64,000 nucleotides of DNA, taken from assembly GCA_018303185.1 (NCBI GenBank), contig JAGVYR010000066.1, positions 29,553-93,552 of the forward strand, read 5' to 3'. This document shows positions 19,073 to 63,345 of this stretch, piece by piece. Each line of letters starts with the position of its first letter. The stretch's first letter is position 1. The DNA is from Candidatus Woesearchaeota archaeon. GTDB lineage: Archaea; Nanobdellota; Nanobdellia; Woesearchaeales; GW2011-AR4. The notes under the pieces are model-generated. The model was given only the letters and a program-made list of their open reading frames with translations. It made no database searches and was not told the DNA's origin. The position numbers were made by a program, and so were the translations under genes.

Positions 19073-20932
19073 CTAAACCTTTAATATTACTGCGCCATTG
19101 TTCTGCGTAACCGGGGAAAACAGCCCTGATTCCGCAATATCATTCAGCTTATTGTTTGTGTTTTCCGTCCCAAACTTCTTGGCAGTCTGCCCGTCAATGA
19201 TTAAGTACTGGAAGCCGTTTTCCTTCAGCCATGCGTGGTTCTCTTCGGCGCTCTGGTTAAAGCCGATAGCCCTGTACGAGCTTATTTCATCGCACCATGC
19301 ACAAGCCTCCATATCCATTCCAATCAGCGCCCCGAAATTGTCAAAAGTGAACACGTTGGACTGCTTTGGCAGGTTCTCACGCATCCACACATAGGCGCCT
19401 ACCTCCTCTCCAGATGTCCAGAATCCCCCCGGAGACCATTGGGCTGTGTTTACCTTGTACTTTGGGATGAAAGAGGTCTGGTATATTGCGAATGCGAGCA
19501 GTAAAATTATTCCGTATGAAAAAATTTTGGCAATATTTTCATTTTTAGTGAAGGCTTTAGCGGCGGATTTCACAAAGGCTCTTATGTAATCAAAAGCCTC
19601 TGCTGCGGCCAGCGCCGTCACAAAGGCAAGCAGCATCCATGCCCTGAATGGAGAGAGCTTTATCTTGAACCTGACAGCGTTGACTGCATAGAATGCAAAA
19701 AGAAACCATATTATCATGACTGCCTTGTTGTAATTTTCTTTGTTGAAAAACGACTTGTATCCCGATATCAAAAGAATAAGCCCGAATACTGCCAGAGGAA
19801 ACAAAAATATCCCGATGCCAACTGGATTGTTTATCATGTTGCTCCCGTTATAGCATCCGCTCTTGGGGGAGCAGAGAAAATCCTGCAGGGCATAAGGCCT
19901 ATCCCCTGTCCCTCCGAGGCTGAGGACATTCGCTCCACTCTGTATATGGACGCCGCGCATTGTCTCTGCAAGTCCATGTGTATATATCATGGGGGCCCAC
20001 CATAGCGCAAATGCCAAAAAGACAGCGAGAGCCCCCGCCATGAACTCATATTTCAAAAACCTGCGCTCTACAGCAGTCCTCGTGAAAAAATAAAGCAGGA
20101 AAAAAAGGCCAAAATAAGTGCTGTGCGTCGGAGAGGAAGTGATTGTAGTCAAAATCACAATAGCCGCAATGCTCCACCACTTATTGTCTTCCCTTATCCT
20201 TTCAGCAGCGTAGAAAGAGACAAAATACAGTGTCATTGTAAATCCAAGCGCCCATATGAAATGGCTCAGGTAGGCTGGCACTGCAAAAAGGGCGAATGCG
20301 GCGAAAGCTGCTTTTCTTGAGGACTTCATAAATTCTTTCGCGAAATAGAAAAAGAATATTATGCCAAGTGAGATTATCAGGGAATTAAAAAATTTGAGGT
20401 TCCAATAGACAGAATCATTTGTCTGGTGCAGGATGCCCATCGTCATCTCATAAGTCGGAGGATAAGGGTCGAGATAATGGAATTTTATCCCGCCTCCGGA
20501 AAACAGAGTTTTTTCCTGCGCAATAAAGCTTGTTCCGATGGAATGGCTCCACGGGTCGTCATCTTCAAGGTAAGGATAGGCAAAAGAGCCTGAAAGATAC
20601 ATGTAGAATGTGGCTGCAAGCAAAACTAAGGCAATTATTGTATAGAGATTCAGCCTTACCTGCAAGCCGCCCAAGACGGGCTTTTTATTTTTTAAATCAA
20701 TGTATATTGAAAATGCAATTAATGCTATGCTAAATAATAAAAAAATCCTCCAGTCTAAGGGGATATGCAGAAGGTTTAGGAGAAGGCCGAAAGCGGGCAT
20801 TGCCGCAAGCCCTATCCCAATCCTCATTATGTGCCTTTCAAGAAAATCCTCTGATTCCTTTGCAAGCCTTGCTATGCTTCCGAACCCATAGCAGTACACG
20901 AAAAACAATATTATGCTCAGCGCAGATGCCAC
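19073..20932 (-). CDS. Polytopic membrane protein with C-terminal soluble domain; possible GT-C glycosyltransferase or polymerase
   Basis: Many TM helices, an acidic loop (YLEDDDPW), and a C-terminal soluble domain of about 150 aa. No WWDYG motif was seen. Confidence 0.3.
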   Translation of the reverse strand: MASALSIILFFVYCYGFGSIARLAKESEDFLERHIMRIGIGLAAMPAFGLLLNLLHIPLDWRIFLLFSIALIAFSIYIDLKNKKPVLGGLQVRLNLYTIIALVLLAATFYMYLSGSFAYPYLEDDDPWSHSIGTSFIAQEKTLFSGGGIKFHYLDPYPPTYEMTMGILHQTNDSVYWNLKFFNSLIISLGIIFFFYFAKEFMKSSRKAAFAAFALFAVPAYLSHFIWALGFTMTLYFVSFYAAERIREDNKWWSIAAIVILTTITSSPTHSTYFGLFFLLYFFTRTAVERRFLKYEFMAGALAVFLAFALWWAPMIYTHGLAETMRGVHIQSGANVLSLGGTGDRPYALQDFLCSPKSGCYNGSNMINNPVGIGIFLFPLAVFGLILLISGYKSFFNKENYNKAVMIIWFLFAFYAVNAVRFKIKLSPFRAWMLLAFVTALAAAEAFDYIRAFVKSAAKAFTKNENIAKIFSYGIILLLAFAIYQTSFIPKYKVNTAQWSPGGFWTSGEEVGAYVWMRENLPKQSNVFTFDNFGALIGMDMEACAWCDEISSYRAIGFNQSAEENHAWLKENGFQYLIIDGQTAKKFGTENTNNKLNDIAESGLFSPVTQNNGAVILKV

Positions 20933-26282: not shown

Positions 26283-27371
26283 ATGAAAATTCTTGTCTTG
26301 ATGAAAAGGTTCGGGGCGAACAAGGACATGGCCCTCGGGAATTTCGGCAGGCAGGTAAGGCTCTTCGAGCCGCTCGCCAAAAGGCATAAGGTGGATTTTT
26401 TCTGCCCTGATTACACAAAGAGGGAGAAGAAAGTTTTTAAAAAAAATAGCATCACTTATTTCATCGAGCCCGTATCATTTTTTTTAATTCCAAAACTTTT
26501 GGCTTCGCTGGAAAAAATAATAAAAAATAAAAAATATGATGTGATTGTCGGCACCACCGATCCTTTATTGGGAATCCTTGCAAATAAGCTGTCTAAAAAA
26601 TACAAAACAAAGTTTGTCTACGACCTTCAGGACAACTTTGAGATATATTCATCCTGCAGGATTCCGTTTGTCCGCCATCTTGACCATAAGGCTGTAAGGG
26701 AAGCCGATCTTGTGATAACTGTAAGCGATACTTTAAGGGAGTGCCTGAGAAAATACAGGAAAAAACCCATGATAACAATTCAGAACGGCATTGAAAAAGG
26801 CATCTTCAGGCCAATGGACAGGAAGAAGTGCAGGGCAGCCCTGAAACTGCCGCAGCATGGAAAAATAATCGCATATATCGGGCACATATCCAATTACAAG
26901 GGATTTGATGTTTTGTTCAAGGCATTTCAGGAGGTAAGGAAAGAAATTCCTGATACGTTTCTTTTGCTGAGCGGAAAGGTCGATTACGGTCTTGATATAA
27001 AAAAAGAAAACGTAGTTTACAGCTCCCTTCCTGAAAGGAAACAGGTTGCAATGGCAATCAATGCCGCAGATGTATGCATAATCCCCAATACCGAGAATGA
27101 ATTTTCAAAATACTGCTTCCCTTACAAGCTGCTTGAGTACATGGCATGTGATGTTCCTATTGTAGCGAGCGATATAGGGGATGTCGGCATTGTCCTGAAA
27201 AAATACGGGAATTCCCTGTTCAGGGCAGGCGGCGCTTCCGATTTGGCGGAAAAGATAAAGCTCAGCATTTCAGCCGGCAGAAAAATAAGCTATAAGAGAG
27301 AAGTCGAAAAGTTCAGATGGAATGCCCTTTCATCAAAGATGGAAAAGGCGATGCTGGACAGGAAGCTATAG
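26283..27371 (+). CDS. Family 4 (GT-B) glycosyltransferase
   Basis: KYCFPYKLLEYMACDVPIVASDIGDVG. Confidence 0.75.
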   Translation: MKILVLMKRFGANKDMALGNFGRQVRLFEPLAKRHKVDFFCPDYTKREKKVFKKNSITYFIEPVSFFLIPKLLASLEKIIKNKKYDVIVGTTDPLLGILANKLSKKYKTKFVYDLQDNFEIYSSCRIPFVRHLDHKAVREADLVITVSDTLRECLRKYRKKPMITIQNGIEKGIFRPMDRKKCRAALKLPQHGKIIAYIGHISNYKGFDVLFKAFQEVRKEIPDTFLLLSGKVDYGLDIKKENVVYSSLPERKQVAMAINAADVCIIPNTENEFSKYCFPYKLLEYMACDVPIVASDIGDVGIVLKKYGNSLFRAGGASDLAEKIKLSISAGRKISYKREVEKFRWNALSSKMEKAMLDRKL

Positions 27372-28238
27372 TGCCTTCCTGCTCCTGATATTTTCAAGCA
27401 CGCTGTAAGGTATTTTTATTTTTCCGAGAGTGAACCTGAAATTGCCGTGATGGTCATTGCCGCCGCTTTCAAGGACGTGCTTTTTTGCCGCTATGCTTTT
27501 GTAGAACTTAATCATTTCCTCATTCCCTCTTTCATCAATCTTAAGCTCCGGGCAGATGATATGGTAGGGGTAATAAGTCTCTATGCCATCGCCCCCGTTA
27601 TCAAGGAAATAATCGATAAGCTTAAGCGATTCTTTTTGCGGATAAATCCCGGGATGGGCAAGTATTGCAACGCCCCCTGCGCCATGGATTGCCTTTATCC
27701 CATCTTCTATGGAAACCCTGTCATGAGTTTCCAGAAAAGCGGGCTTTCCCACGCCTATAAGCCTGTCAAAAACATCCGCTACTGAGCTGAATTTCTCAGG
27801 GTATTTTTTCAGCAGGTATTTTGCAATGTGCGGCCTTCCAAAAGTCCCTTTGACAGCCATTTTCACATCATTAAACTCTATCTTATAGCCCATGCCCTTG
27901 AGCTTTTCTATTATCTGCTTTTTATTCTCGTCCCTTTGCGAGTTGATATGCTTGATTAAATCAGCCAGTTTTTTATTGTTAATATCTGTCAAAAGCCCTA
28001 AAACATCAATCTTGTCAAAATCAAAAAGAGGGTCATCGCAGCTCAGCTCAACTCCCGGCACTATCTCAATGCCCCTATCCTTTGCATATTCAATAGCTTT
28101 CTGCACAGATCCTATGGAATCGTGGTCAGTAATGGCAATCGCCTTAAGGCCCTGCTTCAGGGCAAGGTCCACAAGCTCCTTTGCTTCCAGCTCGCCGTCA
28201 GAAGCTACAGTATGGCACTGGAGGTCTATATGCTCCAT
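27366..28238 (-). CDS. PHP-domain metal-dependent phosphoesterase (TrpH/YciV, COG0613-like)
   Basis: MEHIDLQCHTVASDGELEAKELVDLALKQGLKAIAITDHDS. Confidence 0.8.
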   Translation of the reverse strand: MEHIDLQCHTVASDGELEAKELVDLALKQGLKAIAITDHDSIGSVQKAIEYAKDRGIEIVPGVELSCDDPLFDFDKIDVLGLLTDINNKKLADLIKHINSQRDENKKQIIEKLKGMGYKIEFNDVKMAVKGTFGRPHIAKYLLKKYPEKFSSVADVFDRLIGVGKPAFLETHDRVSIEDGIKAIHGAGGVAILAHPGIYPQKESLKLIDYFLDNGGDGIETYYPYHIICPELKIDERGNEEMIKFYKSIAAKKHVLESGGNDHHGNFRFTLGKIKIPYSVLENIRSRKAL

Positions 28239-28239
28239 C

Positions 28240-28860
28240 TTAACCTTCCAAAATCCTTATGAGCTTATCCTTGAGCTCTTCAAACCTTTCCTCAGAAAGC
28301 ACAACTTTCCTCACAGGCTTCATCTTTACGAATTCTTCCCCTGAATCATCCCTAAAAGCCTGCTTCTTCCCGAATGAGCTGTCGACCGTGTAAGGCTGCC
28401 CTATGTTTCCCCTGAAAGGGAATATCTTGATGTGAAGATGCTCTTTCTTCTCCAGCCATGTGGTGCATTTTCCATAAATGGCAACTGAAGCGGCACCATC
28501 TTTTTTCTTTGAGGCTGCTTCAAGCTTTTTCTCAGACATCATTACCTCTGTAAGCGCCCTGCTGGCCTTTGAGAATATCCTGCCGTAATTCTCGGCAAGC
28601 TTGGGATATAAATCAATCTGCGAGAAATGAGTAAGGTGCGCGAAAGGCATTATCTGTATTGTGAAATCTTCCTCGGGATTGCTTCCTGTTTTCGGGGAAA
28701 GTGTTGCAAACCATCCGTCCTTTTTGCTTCCAACCCTGCATATTATGGCTGCGCCGTATTCGGTCTTGTCTCCGACTTTAAGGGCGATTTCCCTGCATAG
28801 GTTGCATTCTTTAGACATTTTTGCTGCCTCGCTGAACAGCTTTTCAGGTTCTTTTGCCAT
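28240..28860 (-). CDS. HIT-family (histidine triad) nucleotide hydrolase/transferase
   Basis: N-terminal CNLCREI (the HIT CxxC start) and histidine triad EHLHIKIFP. Confidence 0.65.
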   Translation of the reverse strand: MAKEPEKLFSEAAKMSKECNLCREIALKVGDKTEYGAAIICRVGSKKDGWFATLSPKTGSNPEEDFTIQIMPFAHLTHFSQIDLYPKLAENYGRIFSKASRALTEVMMSEKKLEAASKKKDGAASVAIYGKCTTWLEKKEHLHIKIFPFRGNIGQPYTVDSSFGKKQAFRDDSGEEFVKMKPVRKVVLSEERFEELKDKLIRILEG

Positions 28861-28861
28861 T

Positions 28862-29950
28862 TTAATTATCCAATACTCTTATGTATTCTCCGTCTCTCAT
28901 GCCCGATATGTAGCTGTCAAAATACCCAACGACTATCCTGTTGTGTTTCCTGCCTGACTTTTCAGACACTTCCTCAACTGTGCCGCTCACTTCAATATTC
29001 TCTCCGGGATATGCAAGCATGCAGTAATCCCTTGAATAAAAGGCTACTTTATCAATTTTAATATTTTCGCACGATTTGTCTCCGGAGACAAATTTTGAGC
29101 CTGAAACAGCATAGCAGCCCGGCCTTACAATGGAATCCGCATTCGCAGAAACTTTTGCCTTTACCTTGGCGTGCCCTATTTTTTTATAGTGCTCCTGCCC
29201 CCATTTGAACCATGTCTCGCCTTCATTTTCAACTGCAAATATGACGAATAAGGTATTTTTAAAAAATCCCTCTGACTTTTTCCTGTGCATGTTCTCAATG
29301 TAGGTTTCCTTTTTATGCACCATGTGCCTGTTCCTTTTGGTGTAGAAGTGCTCCCATTCTTCATAGGTTTTCCACCTTAAATCCTTGTCCTGCGCTTTCT
29401 CAAGATATTTCATAAGCTCCCAGAATTTTTTCTTTCCGTAGACGACAATGTTTATGTCTGATATGTTCTGGGAATAATGCCCCATTAAAGTTGAATAAGT
29501 TATGCCAAAATCCCCGAGCTTAAGCCCGCTTTTCATCAAAAGAGCGGCAAATTCTGATACTGTCTTAAGATGAAAGTCCATATCTTTGGGAGGAATGCTC
29601 ATCAGCTCCCTAAGCCCGTCTCTTGGCGAGTATTCTTTTTCTATATTTTCCTTGGGAATGGCGAAGAACAATGGGCTTATGTCGTGCATGTCGCTCTTGT
29701 AGATGTAGCCGGGATAAGCCCTGATAAATGCCTTGATATACTCGCTTAATTTCTCCCTGTTTATCCACAGGTCAAGCCGGTTCATCTTCTTTCCTGAAAG
29801 GAATCTTGAAGGCAGGGCATCGCTTGAAATCCTGTCCGTGGGAATGTATTTCGGCTTTACAAGAATCCTGCCCGGAGGATGCTCATTCCCGTAGACCTGG
29901 CAGTGCATGCCCTCTTTTGTTGTGATTATTGTAGATTCGTAGAAGTGCAT
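28862..29950 (-). CDS. Pol-beta-fold nucleotidyltransferase with N-terminal extension and C-terminal OB-like barrel (paralog 1)
   Basis: NTase motif TLMGHYSQNISDINIVVYG (G-x-SDhDh). The C-terminus reads NIEVSGTVEEVSEKSGRKHNRIVVGYFD. Confidence 0.45.
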   Translation of the reverse strand: MHFYESTIITTKEGMHCQVYGNEHPPGRILVKPKYIPTDRISSDALPSRFLSGKKMNRLDLWINREKLSEYIKAFIRAYPGYIYKSDMHDISPLFFAIPKENIEKEYSPRDGLRELMSIPPKDMDFHLKTVSEFAALLMKSGLKLGDFGITYSTLMGHYSQNISDINIVVYGKKKFWELMKYLEKAQDKDLRWKTYEEWEHFYTKRNRHMVHKKETYIENMHRKKSEGFFKNTLFVIFAVENEGETWFKWGQEHYKKIGHAKVKAKVSANADSIVRPGCYAVSGSKFVSGDKSCENIKIDKVAFYSRDYCMLAYPGENIEVSGTVEEVSEKSGRKHNRIVVGYFDSYISGMRDGEYIRVLDN

Positions 29951-29951
29951 T

Positions 29952-31022
29952 TTATATCAGAGCCTTCATGTACTCTTTTTTCCCCCTGTCTGAAGTGTAA
30001 GTGTCAAAATAGCCAAGGACAAGCTGATAGTATTCCTCTTTGCCTTTTACTTTCTCAAGAAGGCCGCACGCTTCAACTTTCTCCCCTTCTTTGGCCTGCA
30101 GCGCAAAAGGCCTTGCCCACGTAACAATTCTTTTTACCGGAACTTCCTTGTGCCCTTCCAGTATTTTTGTGTTTTCAAGCTCATAGAAGCCCGGCCTTAC
30201 TATAGAATAGCGTGCATCCTTTACAGTGCCACTTATTTTCACAGTGCCGAGCGGCTCATGCTCCTCTTCCCAATTGTACCATCCCTTGCCTTCTTCAATG
30301 CAGAAAAGCGAGAATACATTTCCGTCTATGAAGCCGTCATCCCTCTTTCTTGCCATGTTCTTTGCATATTCCTGCTCGCTGTAAACTTCTGACACTATCC
30401 TGTCCCTGAAGTACCTTGCCCAGTCCTGCTCTGATTTCCACTTCAGCGCGGGATGGGAGCGCGTTTCGAGGTGCTTCACTGCCTTCCAGCCGTTTTCTAT
30501 TCCGAAAATGAGTATGTCCATGTCCGATTTCCCCGGCGTGTAATTTCCAAGCAGCGTTGAGTGGCTTATTCCCAGATTTTCATTGCTTATGCCTGCATCA
30601 TTCAGTATGCCTGTCATTTCCCTTACAGCTTTAAGGTACGGGTCCAAATCTTCAACAGGGACTTTAAGCAGCTCCTGAAAGCCTTTTTTTGTATCATAGA
30701 ATTTCTCCACCTTGCCTTCAGGCACCCCTAAAAACCAGTTCCTGTGTTTTTTGCATTCGTATATGTAGTATGGGAATTTTTTCCTTATTGCTGCAAGATT
30801 TTTCTCGACAGATTCCTTTTTGTTGAAAAGATTAAAGCGGAACATGCACTTTCCGAAAAGAAACCTCTTTTTGAGGCCTACGAGGTCCAGAGTGCCGCAT
30901 GGTATGTACTTCGGCTTCGCTATAATGAACCCCTTAGGATGCGAAGAGCTGTACACCTTGAACTGTATGCCGTCAGCTGAGTCTATCAATGCCGCCTCAT
31001 AGTATTTTCCCACATCTTCCAC
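29952..31022 (-). CDS. Pol-beta-fold nucleotidyltransferase, paralog 2 of 28862..29950
   Basis: STLLGNYTPGKSDMDILIFG. It is colinear with paralog 1 throughout (VYSSSHPKGFIIAKPKYIP vs VYGNEHPPGRILVKPKYIP). Confidence 0.45.
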   Translation of the reverse strand: MEDVGKYYEAALIDSADGIQFKVYSSSHPKGFIIAKPKYIPCGTLDLVGLKKRFLFGKCMFRFNLFNKKESVEKNLAAIRKKFPYYIYECKKHRNWFLGVPEGKVEKFYDTKKGFQELLKVPVEDLDPYLKAVREMTGILNDAGISNENLGISHSTLLGNYTPGKSDMDILIFGIENGWKAVKHLETRSHPALKWKSEQDWARYFRDRIVSEVYSEQEYAKNMARKRDDGFIDGNVFSLFCIEEGKGWYNWEEEHEPLGTVKISGTVKDARYSIVRPGFYELENTKILEGHKEVPVKRIVTWARPFALQAKEGEKVEACGLLEKVKGKEEYYQLVLGYFDTYTSDRGKKEYMKALI

Positions 31023-31143
31023 CCAAAATGCCCTTATTAAGCAATAAAAAGGTTTTTAAAAACGTATAAAAACATTGTGTTTTATAGGGCTTAATCGAAG
31101 GAGAGTAACAACAGCCAGAAAGGGGGGGTTTTCACAATAAAAC

Positions 31144-31198
31144 CGCGAGGCGAGCGTTATGCATGAGAGCGAGCCTCGCGACAACCATTGCGGAGCGG
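31144..31198. repeat. GC-rich 55-nt hairpin repeat, copy A (copy B at 58476..58530)
   Basis: cgcgaggcgagcgttatgcatgagagcgagcctcgcgacaaccattgcggagcgg. About 90% identical to copy B, with an 8-bp stem cgcgaggc/gcctcgcg. Confidence 0.6.
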
Positions 31199-31296
31199 AT
31201 TGACAATAAAAATAACGAAAAACCAATAAGAAAAACAATAAAACAAATCAACACAAAAATATCCTAAAATAATAAATAAACAAAAGCAAAAATCTT

Positions 31297-31836
31297 ATGG
31301 AAAACAGACAAAGCTGGACTCTTTGGTTCATTGGGCTGCACGGCTCCGGAAAGACAACAATATCCTCAAGGATAGCTGATATCCTAAGGAAAAAAGGCAT
31401 GGAAATTGTGCTGCTTGACGGCGATGAAGTCAGGAAAAGCATATCCTCGGATTTGGGATACAGCTTAGAGGACAGGAATATCCACATGCAGCGTGTTGCT
31501 GACCTATGCAGCCGCCTCAATAATGAAGGAAAGATGGTGATTGCCGCAGTTGCCTCCCCAACAGAAAAGTCAAGGGACTATGCAAAAAAGGCGATAAAAA
31601 ACTTCTTCACAGTGTATGTAAAATGCCCGCTGGAAATCTGCGAGAAGAGGGATGTAAAGGGCCACTATAAGAAAGCCCGCCTTGGAGAGAAGGGATTCGA
31701 GCATTTTCTCGGCATAGGCATCAGGTTTGAGGAGCCGAAGAATCCTGACATAGTGCTTGAGACTTCAAAATATGCAGTGGAAGAATGCGTTGGTGTGCTT
31801 CTTGGGAAGATGAAGGAGAGAAATATTCTTCGGTAA
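31297..31836 (+). CDS. cysC: Adenylylsulfate (APS) kinase
   Basis: LWFIGLHGSGKTTISSRIADILRKKGMEIVLLDGDEVRKSISSDLGYSLEDRNIHMQRVADL...CEKRDVKGHYKKARLGE. Confidence 0.85.
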   Translation: MENRQSWTLWFIGLHGSGKTTISSRIADILRKKGMEIVLLDGDEVRKSISSDLGYSLEDRNIHMQRVADLCSRLNNEGKMVIAAVASPTEKSRDYAKKAIKNFFTVYVKCPLEICEKRDVKGHYKKARLGEKGFEHFLGIGIRFEEPKNPDIVLETSKYAVEECVGVLLGKMKERNILR

Positions 31837-32440: not shown

Positions 32441-32698
32441 ATGGAAAAATTGGAAATAACAAGTATGAGTTCAAGAGGGCAGGTAGTTATTCCTTTAGAC
32501 ATTAGAGAACAGCTTGGATTAAAGGAAGGTGAGAAATTTGTTGTTGTTGGAGAAGATGATACAGTTATCTTGAAAAAAGTAACCATGCCTTCCTTCAAAA
32601 ACTTTGATAAATTAATTCAAAGAACACAGCAGTTTGCAAAAGAAAAAGGAATAACTCCAGTCGATGTTAAGAGTGCCATAAAGAGAGCTAGAAAATGA
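32441..32698 (+). CDS. AbrB/SpoVT-family antitoxin
   Basis: SSRGQVVIPLDIREQLGLKEGEKFVVV (swapped-hairpin barrel motif). Confidence 0.7.
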   Translation: MEKLEITSMSSRGQVVIPLDIREQLGLKEGEKFVVVGEDDTVILKKVTMPSFKNFDKLIQRTQQFAKEKGITPVDVKSAIKRARK

Positions 32699-33096
32699 AA
32701 GTAGTTCTTGACACAAATATATTTATTTCTGGAATCTTTTGGAAAGGTAGTTCCAACAAAGTTATAACTAATTGGAGAGAAGAAAAATTTACACTGGTTA
32801 CTTCTTTAGAAGCAATTTCAGAAATAATAAAAGTCCTCAAAGATTTTAAAATCAAGCTTTCAGATGAAATGATTAAAGAATGGGTTGATTTGATTGTAAG
32901 AAATTCTATGATTGTAGATCCAAAAGAAAAAATTGAGGCAGTTAAAGATGATCCAAAAGACAATATTTTCATTGAAACTGCTGTAGTTGGAAATGCGGAC
33001 TATATTATTTCGCAGGATAATCATTTGTTAAAATTAAAGGATTTCGGAGGAATTAAAATAATCACACCTGAAGAATTCGACAAAATATGTAACTGA
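32695..33096 (+). CDS. PIN-domain (VapC-like) toxin
   Basis: MKVVLDTNIFISGIF..., with a 4-nt ATGA overlap with the antitoxin gene. Confidence 0.7.
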   Translation: MKVVLDTNIFISGIFWKGSSNKVITNWREEKFTLVTSLEAISEIIKVLKDFKIKLSDEMIKEWVDLIVRNSMIVDPKEKIEAVKDDPKDNIFIETAVVGNADYIISQDNHLLKLKDFGGIKIITPEEFDKICN

Positions 33097-33369: not shown

Positions 33370-34209
33370 ATGGTGGAATCAGTAAAAGAATTGAGGAAAA
33401 TCTGCTATAAAGACTCCGGAAAGAAAAGGCCGCTCTACATGGAGCTGGTTACCATGAAATTCTCCATATACGTGACCAAGCTGTCCCTTTACACTCCTAT
33501 TGGCGCTGACCAGGTTTCCATGCTGATGATACTGCTTACGTTTATAGGGGCGGGCATGATTGCTTTCGGTAATCTCTGGTGGATGCTTGCCGGCATTTTA
33601 ATCGCGCATTTCACGATAGTGCTTGACAATGTAAACGGAGAGGTCGCAAGATACAGGAAGGAAGGCAGCCTCATAGGAACGTATCTTGAGGAAGTCTACC
33701 ACTCTGTCGCGGAGCCTCTTGTATTCTTCGCTTTCGGTTACGGAATATTCAGGAACACAGGATGGGAATCTGCAATACTGTTCGGATTCATCTGCTCCCT
33801 GTTCGTCCCGCCAATAATAATATCCTCAATAAAAAATGCTGTCGTAAAAAAGGGGATAGACCGATTAGAGAGCAGGGAAGGCATGCTGCCTAAAAAATAC
33901 ACTTTGCTCAATGAAAAGATAAACCTGAAGGGCGGAAGCACAAGAGCAGGATCAAAATTCTATGCCCTTTACGGCAAAATCAACGAGCTGTGGGGCTTTC
34001 CTTTCAATTTTGTGCACATAAACATAATCATAGCGCTGGAGATAATAAACCTCAGCTACAGCGTCATCCCTGAATTTTACCTTTCTTTTGGCTATATAGC
34101 AGCTTACGGAACTGCCAATTTCATCATACAAATCGCTTCCTTCATAGTGCATTACAAGGGAAGGACAATTTTCCACTACTACAACGCCCTGTTCGGCAAC
34201 AAGAAGTAA
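33370..34209 (+). CDS. Membrane protein with degenerate CDP-alcohol phosphatidyltransferase-like motif
   Basis: DNVNGEVARYRKEGSLIGTYLEE resembles D-x2-DG-x2-AR...G...D...D, but the last acidic residues are replaced. Confidence 0.35.
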   Translation: MVESVKELRKICYKDSGKKRPLYMELVTMKFSIYVTKLSLYTPIGADQVSMLMILLTFIGAGMIAFGNLWWMLAGILIAHFTIVLDNVNGEVARYRKEGSLIGTYLEEVYHSVAEPLVFFAFGYGIFRNTGWESAILFGFICSLFVPPIIISSIKNAVVKKGIDRLESREGMLPKKYTLLNEKINLKGGSTRAGSKFYALYGKINELWGFPFNFVHINIIIALEIINLSYSVIPEFYLSFGYIAAYGTANFIIQIASFIVHYKGRTIFHYYNALFGNKK

Positions 34210-40252: not shown

Positions 40253-40368
40253 GGCGGACAGCTTTCCTGGTTTCCCACATAGAAATGCAGTACACCCAAG
40301 AACGGAGGCTCGCTTGACTTCCGAGTTCGGAATGGGATCGGGTAGAACCAAGCCCCTATGGCCGTCCT
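40253..40368 (-). rRNA. 5S ribosomal RNA (unlinked)
   Basis: The reverse complement reads GGACGGCCAUAGGGGCUUGGUUCUACCCGAUCCCAUUCCGAACUCGGAAGUCAAGC...GGGAAACCAGGAAAGCUGUCCGCC. It has the conserved CCGAAC and GGAAGU.AAGC motifs, and helix I closes GGACGGC/GCUGUCC. Confidence 0.85.
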
Positions 40369-40463
40369 AGGGTTTGGGAATGAATTTCGATTTATAAAGC
40401 TTATGGTTTTCGCTCGCCCCATATTGACGCAAAAACAAAGCTTTTATAGTATTAAATTGTCCT

Positions 40464-62229: not shown

Positions 62230-63345
62230 GGCTTAAATGAGGCAATTGACAAATTCAATTTTTATATAGCAACAACGATTTTTGAACTTGAATTCTCTTC
62301 ATTTTTGATAACAATTTGAATTGTTCTAAAACAAATGAAAACGCAATTATATTCTCAACAGTTGTCTTTTTTATCGTATGACTTTTCTTTACTTTATTTT
62401 GTATTAAACAAATCTGCGTATAAATTTTTGAGTAACTGTTGACTCTTTCTATGCTTGTTCTTTTCTTAAATTCTTCCATTACAAATTCATTATTTTTATA
62501 GACGGGATTGATTTTAAAATGCCAATCTGTCATCGGTAAATCAATTCGTTCTGTAATTCCTGAAGCCCTTTGATTGTATCCAACCAAAGGAATTTTGTGC
62601 TGGACTAAAATTATTATTTCGTGCATTTCACGAAAATCGAAAATACCATCCATAGTTATAAAAATATTATTTTTGCTATCATCAACTTGTTTTTCTTTTA
62701 GCAACTCTTTCGCCAAATTTATCTGTCCTTCTCTTGCATAGCCAACTAAAAATCTTCTTGCTATTTGATGTTTTGTAGACGCTAAAATCATTAGCCAAAA
62801 TCCATGAAATTTCTTTTTGTCGCTTTTTGCTCCAAAGTGGTATCTGTCAAAACTCATGTCATCGTTTTCAAAAGCTCTGCTTTTTTCCAAAATTCCATCG
62901 AGAAAATTAAAAATTTCTACAAATTTATAGGAAAATTTCTTTTCGAATTTGCTTAAAGTATCATGACTCGGGATTTTTTGAAAGCCGCAAAATTCCAGAT
63001 AAGACTTATTTTCTTGCAATCTGTTCACCAAAATTGTGTTATCATCTATCAGAAGATACGATTTCAAAATAAATGACTTAAACAAATTTACATACCCAAA
63101 CTCTCTTTTCCTGCCACGACGAGAAAACCTTGATTTGCCTAATATTTGCTTGATGGGAAGCCAGTCAAACTCTTGGATTAGGCTTTTTAAATGTAGAAAT
63201 TCTCGGTAATTTTGCATAAAAAGTGCACCTCTTTTATCATATTACCGACTAGAAATTTGGTGCTTTAAATGCTTTGCGTGTATTCTGTCGTCTAGAAAGT
63301 TATTTTTTGTCATCTAAAAAAATTAAGCGATTGCCTCTTAAATAA
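62230..63345. mobile_element. IS4/IS5-superfamily insertion sequence (single transposase ORF, imperfect terminal inverted repeats)
   Basis: The IR core is GAGGCAATTG (62239-48) versus the reverse complement of 63328-37 (GAGGCAATCG). The element is AT-rich and encodes the 62255..63217 transposase. Confidence 0.5.
62255..63217 (-). CDS. IS5/IS4-like DDE transposase
   Basis: The N-terminal SRRGRKREFGYVNLFKSFILKSYLLIDDNTILVNRLQENKSYLEFCGF is an InsH-type N-domain. It is followed by a DDE region. Confidence 0.55.
   Translation of the reverse strand: MQNYREFLHLKSLIQEFDWLPIKQILGKSRFSRRGRKREFGYVNLFKSFILKSYLLIDDNTILVNRLQENKSYLEFCGFQKIPSHDTLSKFEKKFSYKFVEIFNFLDGILEKSRAFENDDMSFDRYHFGAKSDKKKFHGFWLMILASTKHQIARRFLVGYAREGQINLAKELLKEKQVDDSKNNIFITMDGIFDFREMHEIIILVQHKIPLVGYNQRASGITERIDLPMTDWHFKINPVYKNNEFVMEEFKKRTSIERVNSYSKIYTQICLIQNKVKKSHTIKKTTVENIIAFSFVLEQFKLLSKMKRIQVQKSLLLYKN

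Follow-up and report, generated by a model that had tools for sequence, protein, structure and literature searches.

A duplicated Pol-beta-fold nucleotidyltransferase pair in a PAPS-dependent sulfation module of DPANN archaea

To our knowledge, sulfate-activating enzymes are of only two types, Sat (PF01747 + PUA_2) and CysDN, which convert ATP and sulfate to adenylylsulfate (APS) and pyrophosphate (PPi). The transfer of an adenylyl group to sulfate is chemically the type of reaction performed by nucleotidyltransferases (NTases). We analyzed a 64,000-nucleotide stretch of a Candidatus Woesearchaeota archaeon genome (assembly GCA_018303185.1, contig JAGVYR010000066.1, positions 29,553 to 93,552; hereafter the window), in which two adjacent open reading frames (ORFs), ORF-A and ORF-B, encode what is by homology an anciently duplicated Pol-beta-fold NTase pair. 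The pair derives from an archaea-wide family that combines an NTase core with a C-terminal oligonucleotide/oligosaccharide-binding (OB) barrel. Its operon is part of a module for sulfation with 3'-phosphoadenylylsulfate (PAPS), located inside surface-glycan biosynthesis islands. Judged from gene content, A and B together with a linked HIT-fold protein may make the adenylylated sulfate donor APS in place of Sat or CysDN, a reading that we rate somewhat short of an even chance. Described HIT relatives hydrolyze or phosphorolyze APS through a His-AMP intermediate, as documented in PMC4613722 and its reference 11.

Fold and family of the paired nucleotidyltransferases

The two genes and the domain layout of ORF-A are as follows:

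29952..31022, minus strand: ORF-A, 356 aa, GTG start; proposed catalytic subunit
28862..29950, minus strand: ORF-B, 362 aa, paralog of ORF-A with the same three-part architecture; proposed partner that would tether the HIT protein
ORF-A domains: N-terminal beta-rich module, residues ~1-110; NTase core with G151...S155, S166-D167-x-D169 and E243; OB barrel, residues ~254-336

An earlier, sequence-only reading had described the pair as tandem paralogs. Both minus-strand frames were recovered at exactly the coordinates it gave, and BLASTP aligned the products collinearly at 33% identity over 358 columns (E 6e-78). A single nucleotide separates the TAA stop of ORF-A from the ATG of ORF-B. The N-terminal motif named in that reading was found in both proteins, as KVYSSSHPKGFIIAKPKYIP in ORF-A and QVYGNEHPPGRILVKPKYIP in ORF-B, and its H, P, K, K, Y and P are invariant across orthologs. 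The quoted C-terminal string NIEVSGTVEEV...RIVVGYFD was located in ORF-B.

The NTase motif, hG[GS] followed by [DE]-h-[DE]-h, is present in ORF-A as G151...S155 and S166-D167-M-D169; ORF-B deviates from it with D165-I-N167, in which Asn takes the place of the second metal-binding carboxylate. An SD-h-D-h signature had been claimed for both proteins. It holds for ORF-A; ORF-B reads S164-D165-I-N167, with Asn where Asp was expected. The motif does lie mid-protein, and its placement near residue 150 is approximate only, since it occupies residues 164-169 with the upstream Gly at 149/151. Residues S164, D165, N167 and E241 of ORF-B are invariant in 41 B orthologs; among ORF-A orthologs D167 is invariant and D169 is kept in at least 90%.

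One candidate for the third acidic residue sought downstream is a glutamate, E243 in ORF-A and E241 in ORF-B, which is invariant in both families and ends a later strand. Three residues further on, a second Glu is kept by at least 90% of A orthologs, by every B ortholog and by the distant family described below. Either might be the third catalytic carboxylate of ORF-A and ORF-B. The ORF-A of the window departs from this pattern: residues 243-248 (window 30275-30295) read IE-EGKGW against IExxxExW in those proteins, with a one-residue deletion and Lys replacing the conserved Glu. A local sequencing error does not explain the loss, because the database twin of ORF-A (P0001; 100% identical over 99%, start three codons later) is reported on 11 contigs.

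An AlphaFold model of ORF-A (pLDDT 92.9) comprises a Pol-beta NTase core, with the alpha-beta-alpha-beta-alpha-beta arrangement of the minimal NTase fold, and a C-terminal five-stranded closed beta-barrel of OB type. Together with an hhalign link to the distant family, the model bears out the NTase and OB assignments first made from the letters. Foldseek returned no solved structure matching the whole ORF-A architecture at E<=1e-3, and searches of ORF-A and ORF-B against Pfam, NCBIfam and PDB sequences gave nothing significant. On the Pfam NTP_transf_2 model (PF01909) ORF-A scored 12.8 bits against a gathering threshold of 21 (E 0.16), and ORF-B gave no match.

An exhaustive profile search collected 899 relatives at E<=1e-3. 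They include a distant family of ~340-aa proteins from Methanobacteriales, Methanococcales, Thermoprotei, Korarchaeota, Bathyarchaeia and Asgard archaea, which aligned with ORF-A/ORF-B over 343 columns (hhalign probability 100%, E 2e-58). Some members of this family exceed the PF01909 threshold (39.2, 31.8, 30.1 and 29.8 bits), and ORF-A and ORF-B are placed in the Pol-beta-like superfamily only by transitive homology through them. A PDB profile search with the distant-family alignment returned nothing. The family shares with the pair its full-length three-part architecture, the HP...KY.P motif, G-x-[TS]-x-S...SD-I-D, the conserved Glu and the G..E...G motifs of the OB domain. It differs in being single-copy, in its canonical GxTGS and D-I-D, and in lacking conserved HIT, PHP or sulfation neighbors; identity to ORF-A/ORF-B is ~25-29%, compared with 33% between the two. 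ORF-A scores 231 bits against ORF-B, and the best scores of the two to the distant family are 117 and 127 bits. As the paralogs are mutually closer than either is to that family, these comparisons suggest a duplication inside the DPANN branch.

Members of the distant family are annotated as 'predicted nucleotidyltransferase', 'DNA polymerase subunit beta' or 'nucleotidyltransferase domain-containing protein', and no description of the ORF-A/ORF-B family was found in the searchable literature. Three genomic contexts of distant-family genes (Methanothermobacter, Methanothermococcus and Nezhaarchaeales) have no neighbor in common. The Methanothermobacter homolog (L061:3823-7017) is divergent from PTPS/QueD-like, radical-SAM QueE-like and DUF366 genes. 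This arrangement, present in one of the three contexts, may point to a tie between the parent family and 7-deazaguanine or tRNA modification.

The fold itself raises the alternative that A and B retain the presumed ancestral role of the NTase-OB family, namely template-independent nucleotide addition at tRNA or RNA 3' ends. In structure the NTase core comes close to GLD-2, TUT4, Cid1 and the archaeal class I CCA-adding enzyme, and the OB domain to SSB, RPA and the OB domains with which aminoacyl-tRNA synthetases bind anticodons. The CD-NTases DncV/CdnE also count among the closest known systems. A related multi-domain arrangement is known from TiaS, the archaeal tRNA-Ile2 agmatidine synthetase, with an ATP-using N-terminal half and a C-terminal OB barrel. 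Sugars and proteins are also ligands of OB folds, so that likeness of fold alone does not show nucleic-acid binding. The earlier proposal of nucleic-acid or tRNA binding, drawn from the generic OB fold, finds no support in the genomic context, which is a PAPS/sulfation module in glycan islands and not RNA metabolism. We regard the RNA alternative as improbable.

A conserved operon with a HIT-fold protein and a 3'-phosphatase

One genome per species was scanned and ±10 kb was taken around each A-B pair, which gave 58 DPANN-archaeal loci. Their record titles name Woese-, Nano-, Iain- and Aenigmatarchaeota, along with metagenome-assembled genomes (MAGs) titled 'uncultured Methanosarcinales'. The gene order hardly varies: A, B, HIT-fold protein, nucleotide 3'-phosphatase. 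B directly follows A in 54/54 loci, and the HIT gene is fused to B or lies within two genes downstream of it in 49/50. Median intergenic gaps along the module are 1, 1 and -4 nt. The closest relatives of the window carry, directly upstream of A, a 463-aa protein that joins a winged-helix N-terminus to a truncated pyruvate kinase (the C-terminal barrel part plus PK_C; L003:1400-2800, L007:8599-9990, L008, L009), which is absent from the window. In the window two further genes follow on the ORF-B strand, with 1-nt gaps:

28240..28860, minus strand: HIT-fold protein, 206 aa, third constant module member; H141-x-H143-x-K145 invariant, N-terminal C19-x-x-C22
27366..28238, minus strand: PHP-domain phosphoesterase, 290 aa, fourth operon gene; Pfam PHP 7e-14

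The 206-aa protein has the alpha+beta fold of the HIT superfamily. No Pfam HIT match was reported for it at E<=1, and a PDB profile search with the HIT-protein alignment found nothing; a 100% identical copy is deposited as a hypothetical protein of Candidatus Woesearchaeota archaeon. Its triad reads H141-L-H143-I-K145: both His are invariant, and so is the Lys that occupies the third position. The GalT branch (HxHxQ) likewise has a residue other than His there. Compared with the HIT enzymes that act on APS or diadenosine tetraphosphate (Ap4A), namely the Rv2613c Ap4A phosphorylase, Fhit, the Hint4/DcpS APS phosphorylases and the GalT branch, the protein is set apart by this Lys, by a ~60-residue C-terminal extension and by its fusion to the NTase-OB protein B in 8 loci.

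For the 290-aa PHP protein the best NCBIfam models, at 145 and 138 bits, were 3',5'-nucleoside bisphosphate phosphatase and RNase RNM respectively, neither of which reached its cutoff; from these matches it is a probable 3'-phosphatase of 3',5'-bisphosphate nucleotide (pAp). A 3'-phosphatase candidate was present in every locus with a HIT gene: PHP in 39, a SpoT-like HD protein in 8 and a CysQ/IMPase-like protein in 3. These three unrelated folds are mutually exclusive in the slot bar one exception. Displacement of the fourth gene among PHP, SpoT/MESH1-like HD and CysQ/IMPase-like proteins can be followed from the window (27366-28238) through L005, L006, L011, L020-L024, L029, L034 and L036. 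PHP is fused to APS kinase in L032 and L048, and CysQ in L006 and L034. Further fusions involve ORF-A itself, as PF01663-A (4 loci), PF01663-HD-A (3) and HD-A (1).

The RNA-tailing alternative would make the PHP protein an RNase AM-like exonuclease and the HIT protein a de-adenylase, with the proximity to sulfation genes incidental, and the almost equal score of the PHP protein on the RNase RNM model suits it. That three unrelated 3'-phosphatase folds replace one another, two of them fused to APS kinase, argues that the job of the slot is instead the removal of pAp, the by-product of PAPS-dependent sulfation, and not RNA processing.

Proposed sulfate activation and the lack of a nearby canonical sulfurylase

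An APS kinase gene lies divergently from ORF-A across a short intergenic region:

31297..31836, plus strand: APS kinase, 179 aa; TIGR00455 175.7 bits against a cutoff of 138.7, Pfam APS_kinase 1.4e-46
31023..31296, no strand assigned: divergent intergenic region, 274 bp, AT-rich; presumed promoter region of ORF-A and APS kinase

Small inverted repeats are present in the intergenic region. One of them, at 31144-31180, is a perfect 8-bp GC-rich repeat, CGCGAGGC ... GCCTCGCG, with a 21-nt spacer.

An APS kinase gene occurs within 10 kb of the A-B pair in 21/58 loci. Motifs of Sat (HxxH as RNPxHxxH, and GRDHAG) or of CysD/N (the CysD PP-loop and the CysN GTPase) were found nowhere in the 987 kb formed by the window and the loci. 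A tblastn search of the same 987 kb with 21 Sat ORFs gave no match, and CysNC queries matched only through their APS-kinase domain. ORF-A and ORF-B themselves are not members of either class: no Sat or CysDN motif was seen in A, B, the window or 60 related loci, and neither protein has a Pfam match.

As a positive control, 80 metagenome loci anchored on APS kinase were collected, 37 of them at least 6 kb long. Their kinases are 37-45% identical and at least some are bacterial (L071 encodes a sigma-70 factor), so they do not count as extra DPANN loci. Sat or CysD/N was found within 8 kb in 22/37 control loci against 0/21 DPANN loci with APS kinase (Fisher p = 2e-6). No homologs of A, B or the HIT protein were detected in the control loci.

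The two settings are connected by a PF01663 protein of the NPP/alkaline-phosphatase superfamily, ~460 aa and cytoplasmic-looking, often in 2-3 paralogs (L071:2802-6220, L072:5200-12159). A full-length homolog, 32-37% identical to the DPANN protein, sits right beside APS kinase in 13/80 control loci. Sat motifs occur in eight of these 13; two of the eight, L071 and L072, were checked, and Pfam found PF01747 + PUA_2 in both. In DPANN archaea PF01663 genes lie beside the module in 31 loci, adjoining or fused to ORF-A (e.g. L012:8606-9994, L016:8609-11071). A protein family found with Sat elsewhere, and with or fused to ORF-A in DPANN archaea, is the pattern expected for non-orthologous displacement. 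No description of a sulfation role for the PF01663 protein was found in the literature. Haloferax Agl7, needed for sulfation of a dolichol-linked hexose, was considered as a PF01663 protein and dropped, as its family is not stated in the papers.

A-B would occupy the seat of Sat/CysDN, beside APS kinase, the PF01663 protein, a pAp phosphatase and glycan genes, and by hypothesis would carry out the same reaction. Sequence and fold are unrelated: Sat and CysDN are Rossmann-like or PAPS-reductase-like enzymes, whereas here two NTase-OB paralogs and a HIT protein would stand in their place. The substrate and the division of labor we infer as follows. ORF-A, which keeps G...S, D-x-D and Glu, would bind ATP-Mg, and attack of sulfate on the ATP alpha-phosphate would transfer AMP to sulfate, giving APS and PPi. 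ORF-B, with its conserved but altered D-x-N, would serve as a partner, either non-catalytic or using a single metal, to which substrate or product binds and the HIT protein docks. The HIT protein may handle the AMP-sulfate anhydride via His143, by transfer, phosphorolysis or proofreading. APS kinase would then form PAPS, variable sulfotransferases would spend it on glycans, and the PHP, HD or CysQ protein would clear toxic pAp. In a broader version of this scheme, A-B and the adjacent or fused HIT protein would represent a third class of ATP sulfurylase, unrelated in structure to the other two: a heteromeric Pol-beta NTase-OB pair that arose in DPANN archaea by duplication and neofunctionalization of a housekeeping NTase and supplies PAPS for sulfated surface glycans in organisms lacking Sat and CysDN. 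We hold this version more tentatively, at about a one-in-three level of belief.

Genes of the Sulfotransfer_1 and Sulfotransfer_2 families (PF00685 and PF03567), above the Pfam threshold, stand beside the module in 8 loci. A, B and the HIT protein are constant, and the sulfotransferase varies between Sulfotransfer_1, Sulfotransfer_2 and none recognizable; this combination fits donor synthesis better than acceptor-specific transfer. In a further reading, A and B act in the sulfation pathway as something other than a sulfurylase. They might be a group transferase that binds PAPS or APS in the NTase pocket and hands its sulfuryl group on to an acceptor, either a glycan or a lipid-linked one, much as the NTase-fold proteins LicD and FKRP use CDP donors to move phospho-alcohols; or they might be a nucleotide-recycling or regulatory part of the PAPS cycle. 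APS would then come from the HIT protein or from an enzyme encoded elsewhere. We think this reading rather unlikely.

Alternatively, A and B might make a different nucleoside monophosphate (NMP)-X donor, with X other than sulfate, that the APS-kinase homolog 3'-phosphorylates for glycan decoration. A parallel exists in the Campylobacter O-methyl-phosphoramidate pathway, in which a CysC homolog phosphorylates CDP-amidate. The gathering of an NTase, a 3'-kinase homolog, a 3'-phosphatase and transferases in glycan islands is compatible with this route, the PF01663 and CDP-alcohol-phosphotransferase-like neighbors suit phospho-group transfer, and APS-kinase family models may not separate such homologs. 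Yet the kinase clears the APS-kinase equivalog-domain cutoff, PAPS-type sulfotransferase families (PF00685, PF03567) belong to the module, and the PF01663 partner accompanies canonical ATP sulfurylase in bacteria, which points to sulfate. An NMP-X donor thus appears unlikely.

Several points weigh against the proposed assignment of A-B as a sulfurylase. We infer the hetero-oligomer of A and B from synteny only, and APS might be formed by the HIT protein on its own. ORF-A of the window lacks the second conserved Glu. The kinase is near in only 21/58 loci while the 3'-phosphatase is always there, and pure donor synthesis should link the kinase as tightly. The nearest structural neighbors are RNA 3'-end transferases for the NTase core and nucleic-acid binders for the OB domain. 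In class I methanogens, Thermoprotei and Korarchaeota the parent family is present in one copy and outside any sulfation context, so the ancestral function was something else. Finally, the genomes were viewed over ±10 kb per pair and could encode a canonical Sat or CysDN at another place, and sulfate adenylyltransferase genes are reported in hydrothermal-vent DPANN MAGs (PMC8091004).

Glycan island and implications

The first 40 kb of the window form a surface-glycan biosynthesis island with NeuB, DegT aminotransferases, GT1/GT2/GT4 glycosyltransferases, epimerases, sugar nucleotidyltransferases and two flippases. Past 40 kb the content is archaeal housekeeping (Orc1/Cdc6, SerRS, SMC, RNase HII and 5S rRNA). 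Other features are:

33370..34209, plus strand: membrane protein, 279 aa, with a degenerate CDP-alcohol phosphotransferase motif (LDNVNGEVAR); loose recurrent neighbor of APS kinase
40253-40369, minus strand: 5S rRNA gene, 74 bits, at the border between glycan island and housekeeping genes; sole Rfam match in the window
62255-63217, minus strand: DUF772 transposase, near the low-GC end of the window

The 279-aa membrane protein follows the APS kinase gene in 14/58 loci. The window copy has no Pfam match, and on PF01066 the L007 ortholog reaches 21.7 bits, just under the gathering threshold of 22. The protein may be a lipid-linked acceptor transferase of the module. In the window a MazE-type antitoxin and a PIN-domain toxin (32441-33096, plus strand), in a low-GC patch (0.36 against ~0.44), split APS kinase from this usual neighbor. 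A 619-aa ORF without a Pfam match (19073-20932, minus strand) recurs in 9 related glycan-island loci at 616-680 aa.

This setting also bears on whether A and B might be cGAS/DncV-like synthases of signaling nucleotides for defense or signaling, with the HIT, PHP, HD and PF01663 proteins as their degraders. No effector gene accompanies them, and their surroundings are a stable glycan island in which APS kinase and sulfotransferases occur; we consider the idea very improbable. PADLOC families gave no match to A, B, the HIT protein or the PF01663 protein at E<=0.01, and a defense-system reading was rejected on this result and the genomic context.

The superfamily is known; as far as the searchable literature shows, both the A-B-HIT-phosphatase module and its link to sulfation are new. 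Should A-B prove not to be a sulfurylase, a family of ~900 members with no Pfam model or solved structure gains a confident fold assignment and a defined, conserved four-gene module with informative fusions. Attention is also drawn to its parent family as an uncharacterized NTase found widely in methanogens and Thermoproteota, and the invariant Asp-to-Asn change makes B a naturally occurring variant with which NTase catalysis can be probed. If A-B is a sulfurylase, a third, NTase-based mode of sulfate activation would represent non-orthologous displacement in a central step of sulfur metabolism, and some DPANN archaea, usually seen as metabolically minimal, would invest in sulfated surface glycans, which may mediate host attachment.

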